DNA from: Octopus vulgaris | Lineage: Eukaryota | Assembly (NCBI GenBank): GCA_951406725.2 | Contig: OX597822.1 | Location: 34,472,001-34,536,000 of the forward strand | DNA length: 64,000 nt | Direction: 5' to 3' | Shown: piece after piece, positions 575-41,274 of the stretch | Numbering within the stretch: the first letter of the stretch is position 1 | Layout of the letters: each line of letters opens with the position of its first letter | Notes under the pieces: model-generated | What the model saw: only the letters and a program-made list of their open reading frames with translations | What the model was told of the DNA's origin: nothing | The model's database searches: none | Position numbers and translations under genes: made by a program

Positions 575-620
575 AACACAACGTTTCGGCTGATATACTC
601 TCCAGCCTTCTTCAGGTGTC
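575..620 (-). ncRNA. Minimal type I hammerhead ribozyme motif (C3-G8)
   Basis: GACAC CUGAAGA A GGCUG-loop-CAGCC GAAAC GUU^GUGUU. Stem I GACAC/GUGUU, 5-bp stem II, loopless palindromic stem III. Confidence 0.75.
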
Positions 621-5199: not shown

Positions 5200-5970
<771 letters not shown>

Positions 5971-18469: not shown

Positions 18470-18711
18470 AGGGCAGCCATTTTGAGGGAGGGGATAAGTT
18501 GATTACATGAACCCCAGTATTTGATTGGTATTTGTTTAATCGGCCCCGGAAGGATGAAAGGCAGGCAAAGTCGACCACGGTGGAATTTGAACTCAGAACA
18601 TAGCGACGGGAGAGATAGCGCGAAGCATTTCGTCCGGCGAGCTAATGAATCTGCCACCTCACCGCCTTAACAACAACAACAACAACAACACCACCACCAA
18701 TAATAATGATG

Positions 18712-18776
<65 letters not shown>

Positions 18777-19390
18777 CCTTTCTACTATAAGTACAACGCC
18801 TGAAATTTGGGGGAGAGGACCAGTCGATGAGATCGACCCCAGTAAACAAATGGTACTTGATTTATCGACCCAAGAAGGATGGGAGGCAAAGTCGACATCG
18901 GTGGAATTTGAACTCAGAACGTAGCGGTGAGCGACATACCTATTTCTTTACTACCCACAAGGGGCTAAACACAGAGGAGACAAACAACGACAGACAAACG
19001 GATTAAGTCGATTACATCGACCCCGTGCATAACTTGTACTTAATTTATCGACCCCGAAAGGATGAAAGGCAAAGTCGACCTCAGCGGAATTTGAACTCAG
19101 AACGTAGCGGAAGACGAAATACCGCTAAGTATTTCGTCTGGCGTGCTAACGATTCTTACTTCTTTCCTGCCCACAAGGAGCTCCACCCAGAGGAGACAAA
19201 CAAGGACATTCAAACAGATTAAGTCGATTATATCGACCCCAGTGCGTAACTAGTCCTTATTTAATCAACCCCGAAAGTATGAAAGGCAAAGTCGACCTCG
19301 GCGGAATTTGAACTCAGAACATAAAGACAGCCGAACTACCGCTAAGCATTTCGTCCGGCGTACTAACGATTCTGCCAGCAGACTGCCTTA
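18470..19390 (-). mobile_element. Cluster of SINE family A copies and modules with (TAA)n/(TAG)n tracts
   Basis: Repeated ggaatttgaactcagaac / aaaggcaaagtcgacc modules. Confidence 0.85.
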
Positions 19391-19407
19391 ATAATAACAA
19401 TAATAGC

Positions 19408-19528
<121 letters not shown>

Positions 19529-20689
19529 AAACTATCGTTCTTATCATGATGGTGAGAGATGATGATAACCCATACTTTGCAAGAGCCACGGCAATCGCCA
19601 TCTTTTACAGCGACATAGAGCGGAAGTAGTTGGCTTGGAGTAAACGGATACTGTGATCGGTCTCTCATTTCCTTGTGACAGAGCAGAGCAGCCGATTCCC
19701 TGGAAACTGATTGCTACTTTTTATAGAATTATTGATATTAATATACTTGCAAATTTGACCTCAGTGGAATTTGAACTAATAACACAAAGAGCAAGGAATA
19801 AATACCGCAAGGCATTTTGTCCTATCTTGTAACGATTTAGCCAATTGATCGTCCAATGACGTTCATATCTTTGCAGAATTGAATATCTTTACAACTTGAC
19901 ATTTCTCCAATACGGTGTCTTTTTGTTGTCGATAAAAACTAATATTAAATTCATGGTTAATGTCTTCAGCCATAGCTTAGTCTTGTATAACATTGTCGTT
20001 TAAATCACAGGCGTTCCCATTGTGTCAACACATACCAGATAGAAACGATAATTACATTTTTCCGACGGCGAAAGAACATTTTTTTTTCTCTTTCATATCA
20101 TTTTTATCTCGTGGCTTTGATCTGACACTCGATCAATACTTTCTACTTCTTTAACTTATTGTCTACTAAGTACTGCTCTTTGCAGAAAGATAAAAGATCA
20201 TTATAAGCATTATGCAGATACAGATATCTAAGCTGATAGACATCTGATTGTTTTGTTTTTTTTCTTTCTAAGTCTTGTCTACTTTCAGTTCTTTCAAATA
20301 CACGCTGTTTTCAAAGACACTCATCTTCCCTCCTTCTTTTAGTGATTCAATCTGGAAGAAGAGGTTGTACCTTTTGCCTTCACAGGCCTTTCCGGACCTG
20401 TGGTGTTTTTTGTTCAACGACTTCAAGTTGACGGTTACTGGAAGACCGTGTATAGTGAGGTATTGCCAAAGGGTTGACATTCCAGGAAGAAATAATGGGC
20501 TCCGATTTTATTGTGAAGGTATCCATAATAAGGAATTAAGACATGTCATAAAAGTAAATGAGACGTGTGAGACAGATAGACCAGAGTGGAAAAAGATGAA
20601 AGGCATCAAGCATAGTGGTATCAGTAGCAGACTCTTAACTTGAATGGCTGAAGGTTTGAGTTTATTTGGAAATACCAATTTTGGGGACT

Positions 20690-21235
20690 GGGTAAGTCGA
20701 ATTCATCGCCCCTATTGTTCAACTGGTACTTATTTTATTGACCCCGAAAAGATGAAACGCAAAATCGACCTCGGCGGAATTTGAACTCAGAACGTAAAGG
20801 CGGACAAAATACTGGAACACTCGACGTGCTAACGATTCTTTTCTGCTCTAGGCACCAGGCCCGAAAATTTAGGGGAGGGTGCAAACGATTAGATCGACCC
20901 CCAGTATGTAACTGGTACTTTATTTATCAAACCCGAAAGGATGAAAGGCAAAGTTGACTTCGACGGAATTTGAACTCAGAACGTAAAGACAGGCGAAATA
21001 CTTATTTCTTTACTACTCACAAAGGGCTAAACACAGAGGGAACAAACAAGGACAGACAAACGGATTAAGCCGATTATATCGACCCCAGTGCGTAACTGGT
21101 ATTTATTTAATAGACCCCGAAAGGATGAAAGGCAAAGTCGACCTCGGCGGAATTTGAACTCATAACGCAGCGGCGGACGAAATACCGCTAAGAATCTCGC
21201 CCGGTTTCTTAACGTTTCTGCCAGCTCGCCGCCTT
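20690..21235 (-). mobile_element. SINE family A, multi-module
   Basis: Three gtcgacctcggcggaatttgaactc-type modules ending in the head ccagctcgccgcc. Confidence 0.85.
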
Positions 21236-21470
21236 GGAAATAATATATATACCGCTTTGTTTGTAATGTCTAGTTTTTACTAGTTTTCTCCCATTCTCCT
21301 TTAAACTCTATTTGTTAGACATTGCATTTTGTCTATCTCGCTTCACTCTTGATAATTCGTTCAGTTTTGTTATCAACCTTCCCTGTATATCTTATTCTGG
21401 TTTGTTTCTCTCATATTTCACGCTGCGCATTTTTGCACACACACACGCGTGCACACACACACACACACAC

Positions 21471-21525
<55 letters not shown>

Positions 21526-22003
21526 AATATATGAATGCAAAAATTGTCATCTATGTAGCATACTCAATATAAATGCCTCGTTGAAAGCAAGTTGCTGCGG
21601 TAATCGTCTCGAGATAATATCGGTTGAACTTTTATTGTTTAAAACATAATATATATCGCAGGGACACTATGATAGCCACAGCCGTGGTTAACGAGAAAAC
21701 TTGTTGCATTTCAGCCTTAGTGGGCTTCATCAATGCCGCGTACTTATAATGATCGACGTGGTTGCTTTTCCACGATGTTTTGACGTTAGATATGATACAG
21801 AGACTTTTATATTGTTTCTATTGCATATAACGGAATGTATAATAAATACATGTACGTGGGTACTTATGTTTATGTGTAATTGTGGGTGATTGTGCTTGTA
21901 TCTATGTCTGTTTTGTTTGATGTATACGAGTCTATATACATAAATGTATTGATATAATTACAGAAGCAAACATAGTTATACATAAAAAGACAAGAACACT
22001 AAC

Positions 22004-22292
22004 CTTCCTCTGTGGACCTTATAGATGGTAAAGGCTCCATAGATGAGTGGGTTTAGCATGCAGTTGGAAGTCCCGAGAGTGAAGAAGTATATGACAGTGC
22101 GACTGTTGTCCCATTGGAAGAATGCAAAACCTAAGAAGATGATGTAATATGGCGTCCAACAAAGAATGAAAGCTGCGACAATCACTGCACTCATACGCGA
22201 TGATTTCTTCCTGGCCCTTTCAAAAAGATGTGTACGAATTTGTCCATGGTTCACACTATAACACGACATCGATGTGGGTGAAATTGGAGTAT
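22004..22292 (-). CDS. GnRHR: oct-GnRH (corazonin-type) receptor, internal exon encoding ICL3-TM6-TM7
   Basis: Acceptor ttttgcag|AT (G+AT = Asp) and donor GGAAG|gttagt; 289 bp. Encodes (D)TPISPTSMSCYSVNHGQIRTHLFERARKKSSRMSAVIVAAFILCWTPYY...TSNCMLNPLIYGAFTIYKVHRGR, with the CWxPY and NPxxY class A GPCR motifs. Confidence 0.95.
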
Positions 22293-23242
22293 CTGCAAAA
22301 GGAAAAGATAATAAACATAATTAAAAGTACATCAGAACGGAATTGATTTAAATTTTTGCGATTAATTTGCGTGTAATAAAATTGAGGTAATGCAATGCAC
22401 AATTGCTACAGTAATTTCAGTATTGGGTCGCATTCTCAGGTATCACACAGTGTTAACCAATTAAACAATTCATCAGTAGTCCTGAAGGTGGCCATCCGAT
22501 CTTTTCTTCTCAGCATGTCATTCAATAAAGTAATAATCATGAAATAGCCATTTAATTGAATAAACTTACTTTGTTTAGGGCTATTACACTTATATCATCC
22601 ATTCTATTGAATTAGAATTTAAAACAATGTAGCTCGTATTTAAGTGAAATCAGAGACTCTGTTTAAGCATATATTGCTGTTGCATATAGCACTTCAAATA
22701 TCCATTCTATCAAATTGGAATTAAAGCATGTATTTCCAATTGAAGTAACAATAACATTTATAGCTTTGACTGTTTCGCTGCTGATATTATGCCTTAGAGC
22801 ATTTGTGTAGAGATTTCCTTCGCGAAGAAACAGATGGCATATAATGAAATCGCTGTATGGAAGAAAAACCTGGATGCAATATATAACAGCGATTTTGTCA
22901 AATTGCTGCTCTGAAGTCAGATGGAAAACGAATGATGTCAACGATATTTACAGGACCTCTCTGAATCGTGTCCTTTATGAGGGTAAGTTACAATTTTTCT
23001 GGGGCGCAGACTGGCTTCAGAAAAAAAAAATAGAAGACAACATAACACTGTGATATATTAGAAACTTAAATAGCCGCTAGACGATTGACAGCGTGAAGCT
23101 GATTAATAAGGGGCTACTTATAGTTTAAATACGGTAGAGATACTGATATTAGCAAGTCCCTATACGCACAACATATATACGTGTGTGTATGTATTCGTGT
23201 ATGTGTGTTTGTGCGTGTGTGTCTGTTTGTGTGTGAGTGTGA

Positions 23243-23281
<39 letters not shown>

Positions 23282-23440
23282 TGAGAAAGTTGGTGTGTGA
23301 ATGCACCTGGTTGGATATATAGAAAATAGAAAAGAGTGAAAAAACCACAGAAGGCTTGTTTTATAAGGTTAAAAGAATATATTTAAGTCGTAATGTTAGA
23401 AGAATGTTATAAAATTGTGCATATAGTAACATAGCTTTTG

Positions 23441-23479
23441 GAGAAATTACCGGTTTCGTGTTAACTTTTCAAATTTCTC
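23441..23479 (-). ncRNA. Ultra-minimal hammerhead, U3-A8 variant (left arm)
   Basis: GAGAAAU UUGAAAA GU-UAAC-AC GAAAC CG GUA^AUUUCUC. Confidence 0.7.
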
Positions 23480-24131
23480 AAATCTCTTTACCTACATCGT
23501 GTCATGTCTTCGTTATGCAGTGCAAAGAAGAGTTACAGGCAAGGGAGGTAATAAGCGATTTCTTCCGGTATAAGGGAGATAATCGCTTTATATTTCTTTT
23601 CCCCTTTTTTTAATGGGATGAGTTTCTCTGTATAAGAATGTTAGGATGGTTAAGTTCAGGCTTATATTTTTCAATGAAGAATGTTTCCTTGTTTAATCTA
23701 ATTTCTGTTGGCGTGTCAATAGAACATTGGTAGAATGGAAAGATTAAAAATTGTGGTAGTAGTTGCTTTGCGCATTTCTCAACAGATTGCATTCCCAGAA
23801 TACAGAATGATACCCTTTAGTGAGCATATTGAGAAATGCGCAAAGCAACTACTACCACAATTTTTAATCTTTCCATTCTATCAATGTGCTATTGGAACAC
23901 CAACAGAAATTAGATTAAACAAGGAAACATTCTTCATTGAAAAATATAAGCCTGAACTTAACCATCCTAACATTCTTATACAGAGAAACTCATCTCATTA
24001 AAAAAAGGGGAAAAGAAATATAAAGCGATTATCTCCCTTATACCAGAAGAAATCGCTTATTACCTCCCTTGCCTGGAACTCTTCTTTGCACTGCATAACG
24101 AAGACATGACACGATGTAGGTAAAGAGATTT

Positions 24132-24170
24132 GAGAAATTTGAAAAGTTAACACGAAACCGGTAATTTCTC
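24132..24170 (+). ncRNA. Ultra-minimal hammerhead, U3-A8 variant (right arm)
   Basis: Identical to 23441-23479; perfect 7-bp stem I. Confidence 0.7.
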
Positions 24171-24650
24171 CAAAAACTATGTTACTATATGCACAATTTT
24201 ATAACATTCTCCTAACATTACGACTTAAATATATTCTTTTAACCTTATAAAACAAGCCTTTTGTAGTTTTTTCACTCTTTTCTATTTTATATATATATAT
24301 AAATTCAAGCAAACATGAAAGCATGCTGGTAAAACGCTGTTCCTCTAAATGAAAACCTTACCTATCATTGTGATTTAGTGGCACAAAGCAAACCAGGGTT
24401 TGCCGTCCACCCAAGAAAACACATAGTAAATGATCCACAACCACTCTAGAAAACTGAGTACCCCATATTGTTCACTTTACCAAAGGGTTTGTAAGGTACC
24501 AGCAGGCCTCAAGTGACACAAATATGTCCATAGAACATAGTTACCGCTTTATTTTACTGAACCCTCATGTGTGGCTCACGACGAGAGAATCAGCCATACA
24601 TACATGAATACATACATACATACATACATACATGCATACATACACACACT

Positions 24651-27199: not shown

Positions 27200-27388
27200 A
27201 GGCGGCGAGCTGGCAGAACCGTTACATTCTGAGTTCAAATTCCGCCGAGGTCGACTTTGCCTTTCATCCTTTCGGGGTCGATAAAATTAAGTACCAGTTA
27301 CGCAGTGGGGTCGATGTAATCGATCTAATCCGTTTGTCTGTCCTTGTTTGTCCCCTCTATGTTTAGCCCCTTGTGGGTAATAAAGAAA
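27200..27388 (+). mobile_element. SINE family A monomer (internally deleted) with TSD aacatatttaa
   Basis: Head, core and tail present; TSD visible on both sides. Confidence 0.85.
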
Positions 27389-29690
27389 CATATTTAATGT
27401 AATGTGATTCAAAAATCTGATTACAAATTCTAACGCGGTCAGGAAAATACGGTATCTGCTAAAATACTAATATTAATTTAATTACTTCTACAAATACGAG
27501 ACAACCCCGACTATATGTTAGAACTATTTAATCTCTTCAACGAACTATAGCCATCGTCGTAATTGCGGAAAGAATCATGTATTAATTACCAATTTATTGT
27601 GCAAAAACTTTACACGAGTTAGTACAAAAAATTAGTAAATATAATTTAGAAAATGGCTGAAGTTAATTATTTAGAGATGCAATCTACATGAAAACCAGCA
27701 AAATTAAACACTATACAAATTCAGCTGCTGCCTAAATTAAAAATGACTTGATATATGAATAACAGTATTTTCATTGTTTTGAAAGATCGCCGACCAAAAC
27801 ATTGGTGTCTCGCCTTCTGTAAACAGCTATCATCATGTTGCGTTCATGATTAATAAACATAAATTTCAGAAGAATTACTCTAAGAGAGCACCACTAACTG
27901 AATAATCCATTACTATGGGGCATGGCAACGCTGCAAATTAATCAGAAATTCGTTGTTTTGCAACGTTCAGGTTTCTCAAAGTTAAACTATCTACAGTAAC
28001 TAAATTGAATCCAACGACTTTATTGTTTCTTATCTGCTTAGAGTTATAGAAAACAGAAATAATTATTTTGTATCATTGTGACAAGTATAAATGTATTTGA
28101 GATACAACAAACATCTGGTTTGGGTGTCTGAAGCCATTTAATTTTATCGTCGTATGTATGGAAATCAAGAAATCCTGAAAAAGAATATTTTTCATTGCTA
28201 TATATATGATAAAATATTTTCAGTTAATAGAATAATAAAAAAAAAAGCCAGTTGACTTCATCATGCATACTTCTTTTCAAATGTTGGTTTTTATGCTTAG
28301 TCATAAATCTATCTTTCTGTGATGAGCTGCGCTACATCGGAAAAGTATGTTTTTTTTTTTCATGCGTCTAATCCAACACTAAAATTTGCGGTCAATACCA
28401 TTTCATTCATGTCCTACGTGGCTTTAGCACATGAAATTCCTTGTATTTCCCTGTGGTCTATAAAACAATCCACTTGCTTACGCCTAACATTAGTTACTAT
28501 AGGTATTTATTAGACTTATGAACTATAAAAAAAATTGAAAAAGAGCACACGATAGTGAAGCAAACAGTGATCGGTTAAGCTTTCGCCAGATAATAGTATC
28601 AACAACTTTTTCATTTCTACAACAGATAAAAACAAATTGAGGAACATTAAACTATGGAGCAATATATTTTTGGCATACAAAGTGAACCGGATAAGTATTT
28701 GGAAAACGACAAATCTCATTGAATGGCAGTATGTTTGAAAGAACAGTCTTCGACACGTTTCAGAATTATGGCATCATTCTTGGTAGGGGAAGGGATAGAA
28801 TTAGTATCGAGGAAAATTATGAGGGCATAAAATTGTGTGTATATATACACACACAGATACACACACACACACATATTTGGATGAAAAACTATAAACGGGC
28901 ATTCAAAAATCAAGAAAAATGGTAAACTGAGAATGTTTTGTTACCTTTTCCGAAGTACTGAAGCAAATTTGCAGAATCACCTTTCAGGAAGTGTAACAAT
29001 AATTATAGCAATTATAACAATAAACATAGCAAGGCAGCGAGCTGACAGAAACGTTAGCACGCCGGGCGAAATGATTTGCGGTATTTCGTCTGCCGTTACA
29101 TTCTGAGTTCAAATTCCGCCGAGGTCGACTTCGCCTTTCATCCTTTCGGGGTCGATAAAATTAAGTACGCGTTGTATACTGGGGTCGATGTAATCGACTG
29201 GCCCCCTCCTTAAAAATAGTTAGGTGAAAAACTTAAATTTATGTTGGAGCCAATATCTACTAACAGGAGTAAATTCTGCCGCAAATGCTAATTCACAACT
29301 CGTAAATATATTCATTTATTATCCAAAGTGATAACTCACTCAAAAATATTCTTTACTAAAGCATATCCTTTCTTCTACTAAAGCATTCCTCCATGAAAAT
29401 CCCTTTCTCACACTATCTCAGTCTATGAAATTATTGCAGTTTCCTTTAAAATGGAACATGCAACATCGAGCGTTTTTAGTTCATATCGTGTTAAATGATA
29501 ATGAAGAATATGACGAGATTTTGATTCATCACTGTTCACTGGAGATGTATATTCTAACGCCATCAGGAAATTTTTAAGAGCTGTACTTATTCTATCGACT
29601 TCTTTTGCAAAACCGGTCGTTAAGTGACGTAGAAATAAACAGAAAGACAGGCTGTTATATGTGTGCAAACATACATACATACATACATGC

Positions 29691-29769
<79 letters not shown>

Positions 29770-29773
<4 letters not shown>

Positions 29774-30115
29774 CATTCCGTCGCTTACGACGACAAGGGT
29801 TCCAGTTGATCCAATCAACCGAACAGCCGGCTCGTGAAATTAGCGTGGAAGTGACTGAGCACTCCACAGACAAGTGTACCCATTTCTTTACTACCCACAA
29901 GGGGCTAAACACAGAGGGGACAAACAAGGACAGACAAAAACGGATTAAGTCGATTATATCGACCCCAGCGCGTAACTGTTACTTAATTTATCGACTCTGA
30001 AAGGATGAAAGGCAAAGTCGACCTTGGCAGAATTTGAACTCAGAACGTAGCGGCAGACGAAATATTCCGGTAAGCATTTCGCCTGGCATGCTAACGTTTC
30101 TGCCAGATCGCCAAA
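29770..30115 (-). mobile_element. SINE family A joined to the 3' part of SINE family D
   Basis: 29770-29880 is homologous to 42945-43050; 29882-30115 is family A. Confidence 0.7.
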
Positions 30116-40517: not shown

Positions 40518-40719
40518 CGTGAAACTGTCTCGATGTTTTAACAATAGTCTTTAAAATGAGCAGGTAGGATGTAACCATTATTATGAGCGGGATAACAAAC
40601 AGCAGAATCAGTGACGATGCCGAATAGAGTTGCTTTTGCCAAAGTGCATTATAACTATCGCGGCACTGGTGAAACATTCCTTGTCTGAACATTTTTCGCT
40701 GTTCTTGGAAAATAACAGC
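40518..40719 (-). CDS. GnRHR: oct-GnRH (corazonin-type) receptor, internal exon encoding ECL2-TM5-ICL3 start
   Basis: Acceptor ttttaatccag|GCT and donor CACG|gtaagt; 202 bp, phase 0 to phase 1. Encodes AVIFQEQRKMFRQGMFHQCRDSYNALWQKQLYSASSLILLFVIPLIIMVTSYLLILKTIVKTSRQFH, which matches my recollection of Octopus GnRHR. Splices in frame to the exon starting at 22292. Confidence 0.93.
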
Positions 40720-41274
40720 CTGGATTAAAAGGTTGTAAAAGAAAGCAAAACAAATGTATTAATACACAAGCGAGTATGAAATAGTTTGATACTTAACGAC
40801 AAAAGAGAACAAAAAAAAAATTATGTATAAATTTTGAGTATTAAGTGGTTTCATACTTAACAATCCATTTCATTCATATGCTGTAATGTCCAGCCCGTTG
40901 ATTGATGCTTCGATTTATTGATCCATCCATCAATGAATCTATCATTTTATCCATTCGGCTTAATTGTATGTGTGCATTCACGTAAATTTTTGTCTGTGTA
41001 CGTGCCTTTATATGGATAGCATCTCTGTCTGTCTGTCTGTCTCTCTCTCTTTCTGTCTGTCTGTCTGTCTGTCTCTCTTTCTGTCTGTCTGTCTCTCTCT
41101 TTCTGTCTGTCTGTCTGTCTCTCTCTCTCTTTCTGTCTGTCTGTCTGTCTCTCTCTCCATTTCTGTCTGTCTGTCTCTCTCTCTGTCTCTCTTTCCTTTT
41201 ACATATCCCTCTATTTCTCTCTCTATCTATCAATTAACCTGGCTATCTGCCTTTCTCTCTGCCTACCTCCCAAC

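Follow-up and report, generated by a model that had tools for sequence, protein, structure and literature searches.

A minimal hammerhead motif carried twice by an inverted Penelope-like element remnant in an intron of the octopus GnRH-receptor gene

A 39-nt sequence that occurs once on each strand within an intron of the GnRH-receptor gene of Octopus vulgaris is a real and well-supported hammerhead motif of a Penelope-like element (PLE), and lies inside an ordinary inverted PLE remnant. The analysis covered a 64-kb stretch of DNA, referred to here as the window. We consider it probable that the motif is the hammerhead of a PLE pseudo-LTR, present in duplicate by way of two truncated copies that stand head to head, and that its cleavage, in all likelihood, requires a dimer in tandem elements, with the copies at this locus predicted to be inert. 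The two motif copies go back to one duplication and are not independent occurrences, and their layout on two strands is a by-product of PLE insertion that carries no sign of function. Most of the finding is thus ordinary, and the residual interest lies in the very short stem II, which recurs in three PLE families.

The motif and its detection

An earlier note on this DNA had parsed the motif as GAGAAAU-UUGAAAA-GU(UAAC)AC-GAAAC-CG-GUA^AUUUCUC, and this parse is borne out, with a 7-bp stem I, UUGAAAA, a 2-bp stem II, GAAA, ACCGGU and a GUA triplet. The claim that both arms of the surrounding palindrome carry the identical 39-mer also holds, as 24132-24170(+) equals 23441-23479(-) with 0 mismatches. 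The exact sequence is present in these two places only, no further copy within 3 mismatches was found elsewhere in the 64-kb window, and none of 100 shuffled sequence controls matched it. The parts of the motif are as follows.

24132..24170, + strand: type I minimal hammerhead motif (exact match, descriptor, covariation, covariance model)
24132-24138 with 24164-24170, + strand: stem I, 7 bp
24139 and 24144, + copy of the motif: U3 and A8
24146-24147 with 24152-24153, + strand: stem II, 2 bp
24157-24162, + strand: stem III palindrome ACCGGU
24163, + strand: N17, here A
23441..23479, - strand: identical hammerhead motif, inverted copy (exact match, descriptor, covariance model)

The core is complete (U4, G5, A6, A9, G12, A13 and A14, the A15.1-U16.1 pair and the 10.1-11.1 pair), the Watson-Crick pair at 3:8 is U3-A8, and the cleavage triplet at the window locus, GUA, is of the NUH type. 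The 5' and 3' ends of the three-way junction meet in stem I, which makes the motif type I.

A hammerhead descriptor that admits C3-G8 or U3-A8, composed after the motif had been seen, gave three matches in the window, namely the two 39-mer copies and 620-575; over 100 shuffled windows the average was 0.02. A covariance model trained on two other loci alone offers a fairer test than the descriptor, and placed both copies top among the 8 matches listed for the 64 kb, with 19.2 bits (rough E 0.016) as compared with 11.9 bits for the following match. Even with E values of up to 10 admitted, Rfam reported no hammerhead for 23300-24300, and the best 150 of its 260 rows for the whole window were all microsatellite-driven noise; Rfam overlooks PLE motifs of such small size. 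In isolation, the 39-mer folds no better than its own shuffles (z -0.87).

The element, its insertion and the host intron

The palindrome is made of two copies of the 3' end of a PLE, flanked by (TA)n, between two exons of the receptor gene.

21997..22299, - strand: GnRH-receptor exon, residues ~230-328, 98% identical to GNRHR_OCTVU (Octopus vulgaris)
23248..23279: (TA)16, left flank
23280..23314, - strand: 35-nt A/C-rich extension, left copy only
23315..23782, - strand: left copy, inverted, with a 5' end 49 nt shorter than that of the right copy
23610..23782, - strand: endonuclease C-terminus again, inverted copy
23780..23782: microhomology, a 3-nt overlap common to the 5' ends of both copies
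23780..24001, + strand: GIY-YIG endonuclease C-terminus, ~70 codons and stop, 90% identical to P0001 and 69% to P0003
23780..24287, + strand: right copy, 5'-truncated PLE 3' end (ORF end and pseudo-LTR region)
23783..23828, + strand: 46-nt spacer, part of the right copy only, loop of the predicted hairpin
24288..24301: (TA)7, right flank
40519..40722, - strand: upstream GnRH-receptor exon, residues 164-231, 100% identical

Only the part from 23780 onward of the listed 88-aa ORF derives from the element, which makes this ORF chimeric, and the endonuclease part in the window lacks the GIY and YIG motifs proper. No Pfam domain was found in the two window ORFs; among the relatives, P0003, a close one whose protein has RT plus GIY-YIG, shows RVT_1 above the cut-off, and P0002 shows GIY-YIG at the cut-off. 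All 34 of 34 aligned relatives, P0001 and P0003 included, have the cysteine pattern of the CX2-5CxxC linker and CCHH motif, which are marks of Neptune and Nematis PLEs (PMC8557442). This suggests a Neptune-like PLE, the assignment being made by the linker and CCHH traits. The family shares with the EN+ PLEs of Neptune and Nematis the order RT, CX2-5CxxC linker and GIY-YIG with CCHH (PMC8557442; PMC3846280), in a single ORF in the close relative P0003, and the window insertion differs from them in being a 1-kb remnant without RT. The hammerhead sits on the sense strand in the pseudo-LTR, and its stem I begins 130 nt past the GIY-YIG stop at 23999-24001, in agreement with the distance of about 130 nt claimed before.

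The arms of the inverted repeat (23315-23782 and 23829-24296) are 468 nt each, 97% complementary and 46 nt apart. The 12 differences between them over 460 sites make a fold-back artefact less likely. Both copies are 5'-truncated and lie head to head within a (TA)n tract. The (TA)16 of the left flank is likely the target microsatellite, and the 35-nt extension, seen in the left copy alone, is likely the optional PLE tail. The insertion has three of the Neptune/Nematis-type traits, namely 5' truncation, an inverted 5' copy and a microsatellite target, and the 35-nt extension would correspond to their one-sided tail; an inverted 5'-truncated copy, a one-sided tail of 30-40 bp and head-to-head palindromes have been described for PLEs (PMC8557442; PMC3846280). 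The palindrome is no ribozyme switch but the inverted 5' copy that PLE insertions commonly show. Two of the 12 differing sites, 23881 and 23995, are polymorphic family-wide, and at 23906, 24194 and 24219 the two arms have in common alleles that stand at ~1% of family depth. This allele pattern may go back to two templates, to a single template that mutated later, or to gene conversion of one arm by the other.

With the receptor exons mapped to 40722-40519 and 22299-22003 on the - strand, the insertion falls inside an intron of ~18 kb. In the GnRH-receptor pre-mRNA, 23315-24296 would give a hairpin of ~460 bp, which would be a likely substrate of A-to-I editing.

Published hammerheads, related loci and variation within the family

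The U3-A8 core, the palindromic stem III, dimer-dependent cleavage, opposite-strand PLE pairs and, elsewhere, 2-bp stems II are already published. U3-A8 is a known active hammerhead variant (PMC3088659) and is found in about 1,300 PLE motifs of Schistosoma, one with the UUGAAAA core (row S. mansoni 4), and PLE hammerheads have been described in pairs on opposite strands, 100-700 bp apart (PMC4209133). The window motif is like these minimal PLE hammerheads, among them the U3-A8 forms of S. mansoni Cercyon, in being of type I, in its place in the pseudo-LTR behind an ORF, in its vestigial, palindromic stem III, in its U3-A8 core and G10.1-C11.1, and in the opposite-strand pair, at 652 nt in the window. 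In the rows given in that source, helix II has 3-8 bp and mostly an extra base 9/10.1, and helix I has 2-6 bp, whereas helix II of the window motif has 2 bp (1 bp in the common allele), no extra base is present and helix I has 7 bp; none of the 56 rows is from a cephalopod (PMC4209133). The motif also falls outside the narrow consensus that Cervera 2014 gives for min-HHRs, which has a long helix II and an extra base between 9 and 10.1, the latter lacking in some published rows. By our own count on Fig. S3 of PMC4209133, PLE motifs go down to 34-35 nt with stem I, and the shortest junction there has 27 nt. The view that the motif is near the smallest possible hammerhead is overstated, as its 39 nt overall exceed the published 34-35 nt, although its 25-nt junction is 2 nt below the shortest one in that figure.

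The small PLE-associated variants that cleave as dimers (Lunse, Weinberg and Breaker 2017, as described in PMC6765202, PMC6466107 and PMC8490949) are similar in their short palindromic stem III, PLE context and dimer mechanism (PMC6765202; PMC6466107). Among the hammerheads of Perreault et al. 2011, stem II often has 2 bp and once 1 bp, U3-A8 covaries, and U10.1-U11.1, which is also seen in one of our loci (L005), is tolerated; those tested rely on a pseudoknot between stems I and II (PMC3088659), whereas for the window motif, whose stem III is also vestigial, no conserved one was found. Neither an octopus PLE hammerhead nor a PLE form with a 2-bp stem II was found in the texts of the literature searched, PMC6155905 and 10.64898/2026.07.22.740005 included, a scope that covers running text and, for Lunse 2017, what other papers relate of it. 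What remains mildly unusual is the 25-nt junction with a stem II of 1-2 bp and no tertiary contact found, in three PLE families.

Relatives were collected from metagenome and genome collections, and 97 loci were kept (80 of 357, and 17 more), which are likely animal DNA. A metagenome scan with the 3 closest proteins gave no match, but a broader alignment did yield relatives. No relatives were found among viral contigs, and two pattern matches in such contigs were dropped as being without stem I. PLE-like RT ORFs, several with hammerheads, are also present in contigs filed as bacterial genome bins (L083-L099), where they likely represent contamination by DNA of the host animal.

In 34 of the 97 loci, 35 distinct hammerhead motifs were identified; many loci stop short of the 3' region, so that misses mean little. 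Two loci with ~45% endonuclease identity, L003 and L012, have the geometry of the window motif, that is, a GU-N4-AC stem II, no extra base, ACCGGU and a long stem I (8 bp in L003 and 10 bp in L012), and both have C3-G8 and U17. Their C3 lies 108 nt (L003) and 82 nt (L012) after the stop, as compared with 137 nt from stop to U3 in the window, and the 3699-bp direct repeat that makes up L003 carries two sense motifs. Counted from position 3 through position 17, the junction measures 25 nt in all three, the shortest among the 35 motifs. MAFFT misaligned motifs of unequal length, and covariation was therefore counted on these three gap-free motifs alone. Both sides change in 6 of 8 stem I pairs and in the 3:8 pair, and 97.4% of cells are paired, a value reached by 0 of 500 shuffles and compared with 36-58% in slid controls, all for 3 sequences only. 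By the covariation of stem I and of the 3:8 pair, the fold is well supported; stems II and III are invariant across the three motifs and hence gain no covariation support.

U3-A8 is present in 4 of the 35 motifs, none of which has A17, and A17 in 5 of the 31 C3-G8 motifs, these being small numbers. In a quick tree, made up of relatives other than named Neptune or Nematis elements, L003 and L012 nest among forms with a stem II of 3-4 bp (support 98), and the octopus family falls only in a weak group (87), so that the 2-bp stem II may have had one or two origins, both of which are compatible with the tree. At L005:4097-4132, in both repeats of the element, the core and ACCGGU are intact, the junction has 26 nt and there is no Watson-Crick stem II, with U10.1 opposite U11.1. 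Hammerhead pairs on opposite strands that point outward were seen in other PLE loci (L034:3127-3167 with 5312-5352; L088:501-543 with 2060-2102), which indicates that this layout is common.

Within the octopus, the PLE family is highly repeated: in 4 of 4 runs, 748 to 2168 contigs per run were aligned, to 23783-24287 only, depth not being equal to copy number. Five of the best 40 of 104 differences fall inside the motif (24147, which is position 10.2, 24148 and 24151 in loop II, 24163 and 24170), and among these best 40, over four runs, neither stem III nor any base of the core, U3 and A8 included, shows a change. The expectation that the core and the stem I pairing are constant in the family is borne out to this extent, with neither a CUGANGA-type change of U3 or A8 nor a loss of stem I pairing, and the change at 24170 turns the terminal stem I pair from G-C into G-U. 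Beyond these 40 differences, C3/G8 copies may exist as a minority. The 2-bp stem II, as given in the earlier note, is not upheld for the family, as 24147, 24148 and 24151 vary together and the second pair is broken in 27-57% of the depth at 24147, which leaves G10.1-C11.1 as the only constant pair of stem II among the best 40 of 104 differences. At 24163 (N17), T (U17) makes up 48-79% of the depth and A17, the form of the window locus, 21-52%. The frequent A17 could reflect weak selection on catalysis.

Predicted folding and possible roles

According to the energy model, the monomer does not form stem III, and two copies form a swapped dimer with a 6-bp palindromic ACCGGU stem III (P 0.985). 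Stem II is predicted to be unstable (G10.1-C11.1, P ~0.1) and U3-A17 pairing to be favored (P 0.84). In a pseudoknot test, loop II matched the 3' flank over 5 bp in the window (p 0.04, best of 8 tests); the alternative loop does not retain this match, L003 and L012 do not have it, and no conserved canonical loop II contact was found in these comparisons. In the hairpin formed by the two arms, for which the model gives about -760 kcal/mol, all 39 of 39 motif nucleotides are paired on either strand, which is in line with the sequestration by the antisense copy that had been proposed.

Where an element is intact and arranged in tandem, a pair of sense copies would exchange stem I strands while their ACCGGU palindromes pair as a 6-bp stem III. 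The tandem layout is taken from relatives at ~45% identity, and no intact tandem copy of the octopus family was seen. The dimer would probably be aided by the protein of the element, and a cut after N17 would process a multimeric transcript. This is consistent with reports that minimal PLE hammerheads are inactive as monomers and weakly active as dimers (PMC4209133), and that a PLE hammerhead is assisted by protein (PMC11167929). At the window locus, any read-through RNA, GnRH-receptor pre-mRNA included, would instead fold as a hairpin of ~460 bp. In this model, the antisense arm is made first and ~300 bp of the hairpin would zip before the sense motif appears, each transcript holds one sense copy and would thus lack a stem III partner in cis, and A17 could mask the cleavage site through pairing with U3, by analogy with the 3:17 trap put forward for C3-G17 (PMC3884650). 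That the antisense copy comes first on the receptor strand, as claimed earlier, is true, yet nothing special, since the copies point outward and the order is the same on both strands. A single sense copy preceded by its antisense arm favors the hairpin, and the model suggests that the GnRH-receptor gene is likely not cut by the hammerhead. The significance for the host gene is accordingly small, with the insertion likely a silent remnant.

A bolder extension, which we regard as tentative and unlikely, is that one Neptune-like PLE branch has stripped its hammerhead to a 25-nt junction, with a stem II of 2, 1 or 0 pairs, a vestigial stem III and no pseudoknot, for which the length of stem I (7-10 bp in the three 2-bp families) would compensate. 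Such motifs would come close to the lower size limit and act as natural dimeric minizymes, active only once two copies have swapped strands or the protein of the element is bound, and the octopus U3-A8 with A17 or U17 would represent locked and open alleles. The window, L003, L012, L005, L010 and L006 form a natural series in one homologous setting, in which stem II ranges from 0 to 4 bp, the 3:8 pair is C3-G8 or U3-A8 and N17 is A or U. This series lets one probe the minimal size of a hammerhead, the 3:17 trap for U3-A17 and the stability supplied by the PLE protein.

It is rather improbable that the motif descends from a PLE hammerhead and no longer cleaves even in intact elements, having taken a structural or protein-binding role in the pseudo-LTR or being in decay. 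The reduction of stem II to 1-2 bp without a tertiary contact and the commonness of A17 in the family, with its predicted U3-A17 pairing, speak for such a loss, as do the weak cleavage of PLE hammerheads, their dispensability for insertion in vitro (PMC4209133; PMC11167929), where hammerhead mutants had no effect and the cut site was not the end point of any read (PMC11167929), and the success of Naiad PLEs without any hammerhead (PMC8557442). However, C3-G8 has been replaced by U3-A8 in a double compensatory change, and this pair matters only in the active fold; core and stem III are, moreover, unchanged among the best 40 of 104 differences in the four runs, and natural hammerheads with a stem II of 1-2 bp are active, though with pseudoknots (PMC3088659).

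A role as a host switch, in which the ribozyme would cut GnRH-receptor pre-mRNA once A-to-I editing, helicases or the like had opened the hairpin, and thereby tune receptor expression, is very improbable. Octopuses edit their RNA heavily, the insertion lies in a transcribed intron and the motif copies are identical despite 12 differences between the arms over 460 sites, all of which could be counted in favor of a switch. A divergence of 2.6%, however, leads one to expect ~1 difference per 39 nt, which makes the identity unremarkable, and the single sense copy per transcript has no stem III partner within a hairpin of such predicted stability; the layout is the standard inversion of PLEs (PMC8557442; PMC3846280). 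Least credible of all is that AT-rich DNA produced the motif by chance or that assembly fold-back produced the palindrome, an explanation to which the unremarkable folding of the 39-mer and the lack of an Rfam hit would lend some color, but which is already largely refuted by the low descriptor background (0.02 per window), the top rank of the motif among the 8 matches listed for the independent covariance model, the homologous position and covariation in other PLEs, and arms that differ at 12 sites and in their 3' ends, unlike those of a fold-back chimera.

Two other features of the window were noted. At 575-620(-) there is a second, standard minimal hammerhead with C3-G8, a 5-bp stem I, a 6-bp stem II and an extra base, which likely belongs to the pseudo-LTR of another PLE family; an open frame follows on the - strand, for which no protein match was found among the PLE proteins compared. 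A SINE-like interspersed repeat of 130-190 nt is present in at least 8 copies in both orientations (18500-21250, 27200-27400 and 29000-30000).
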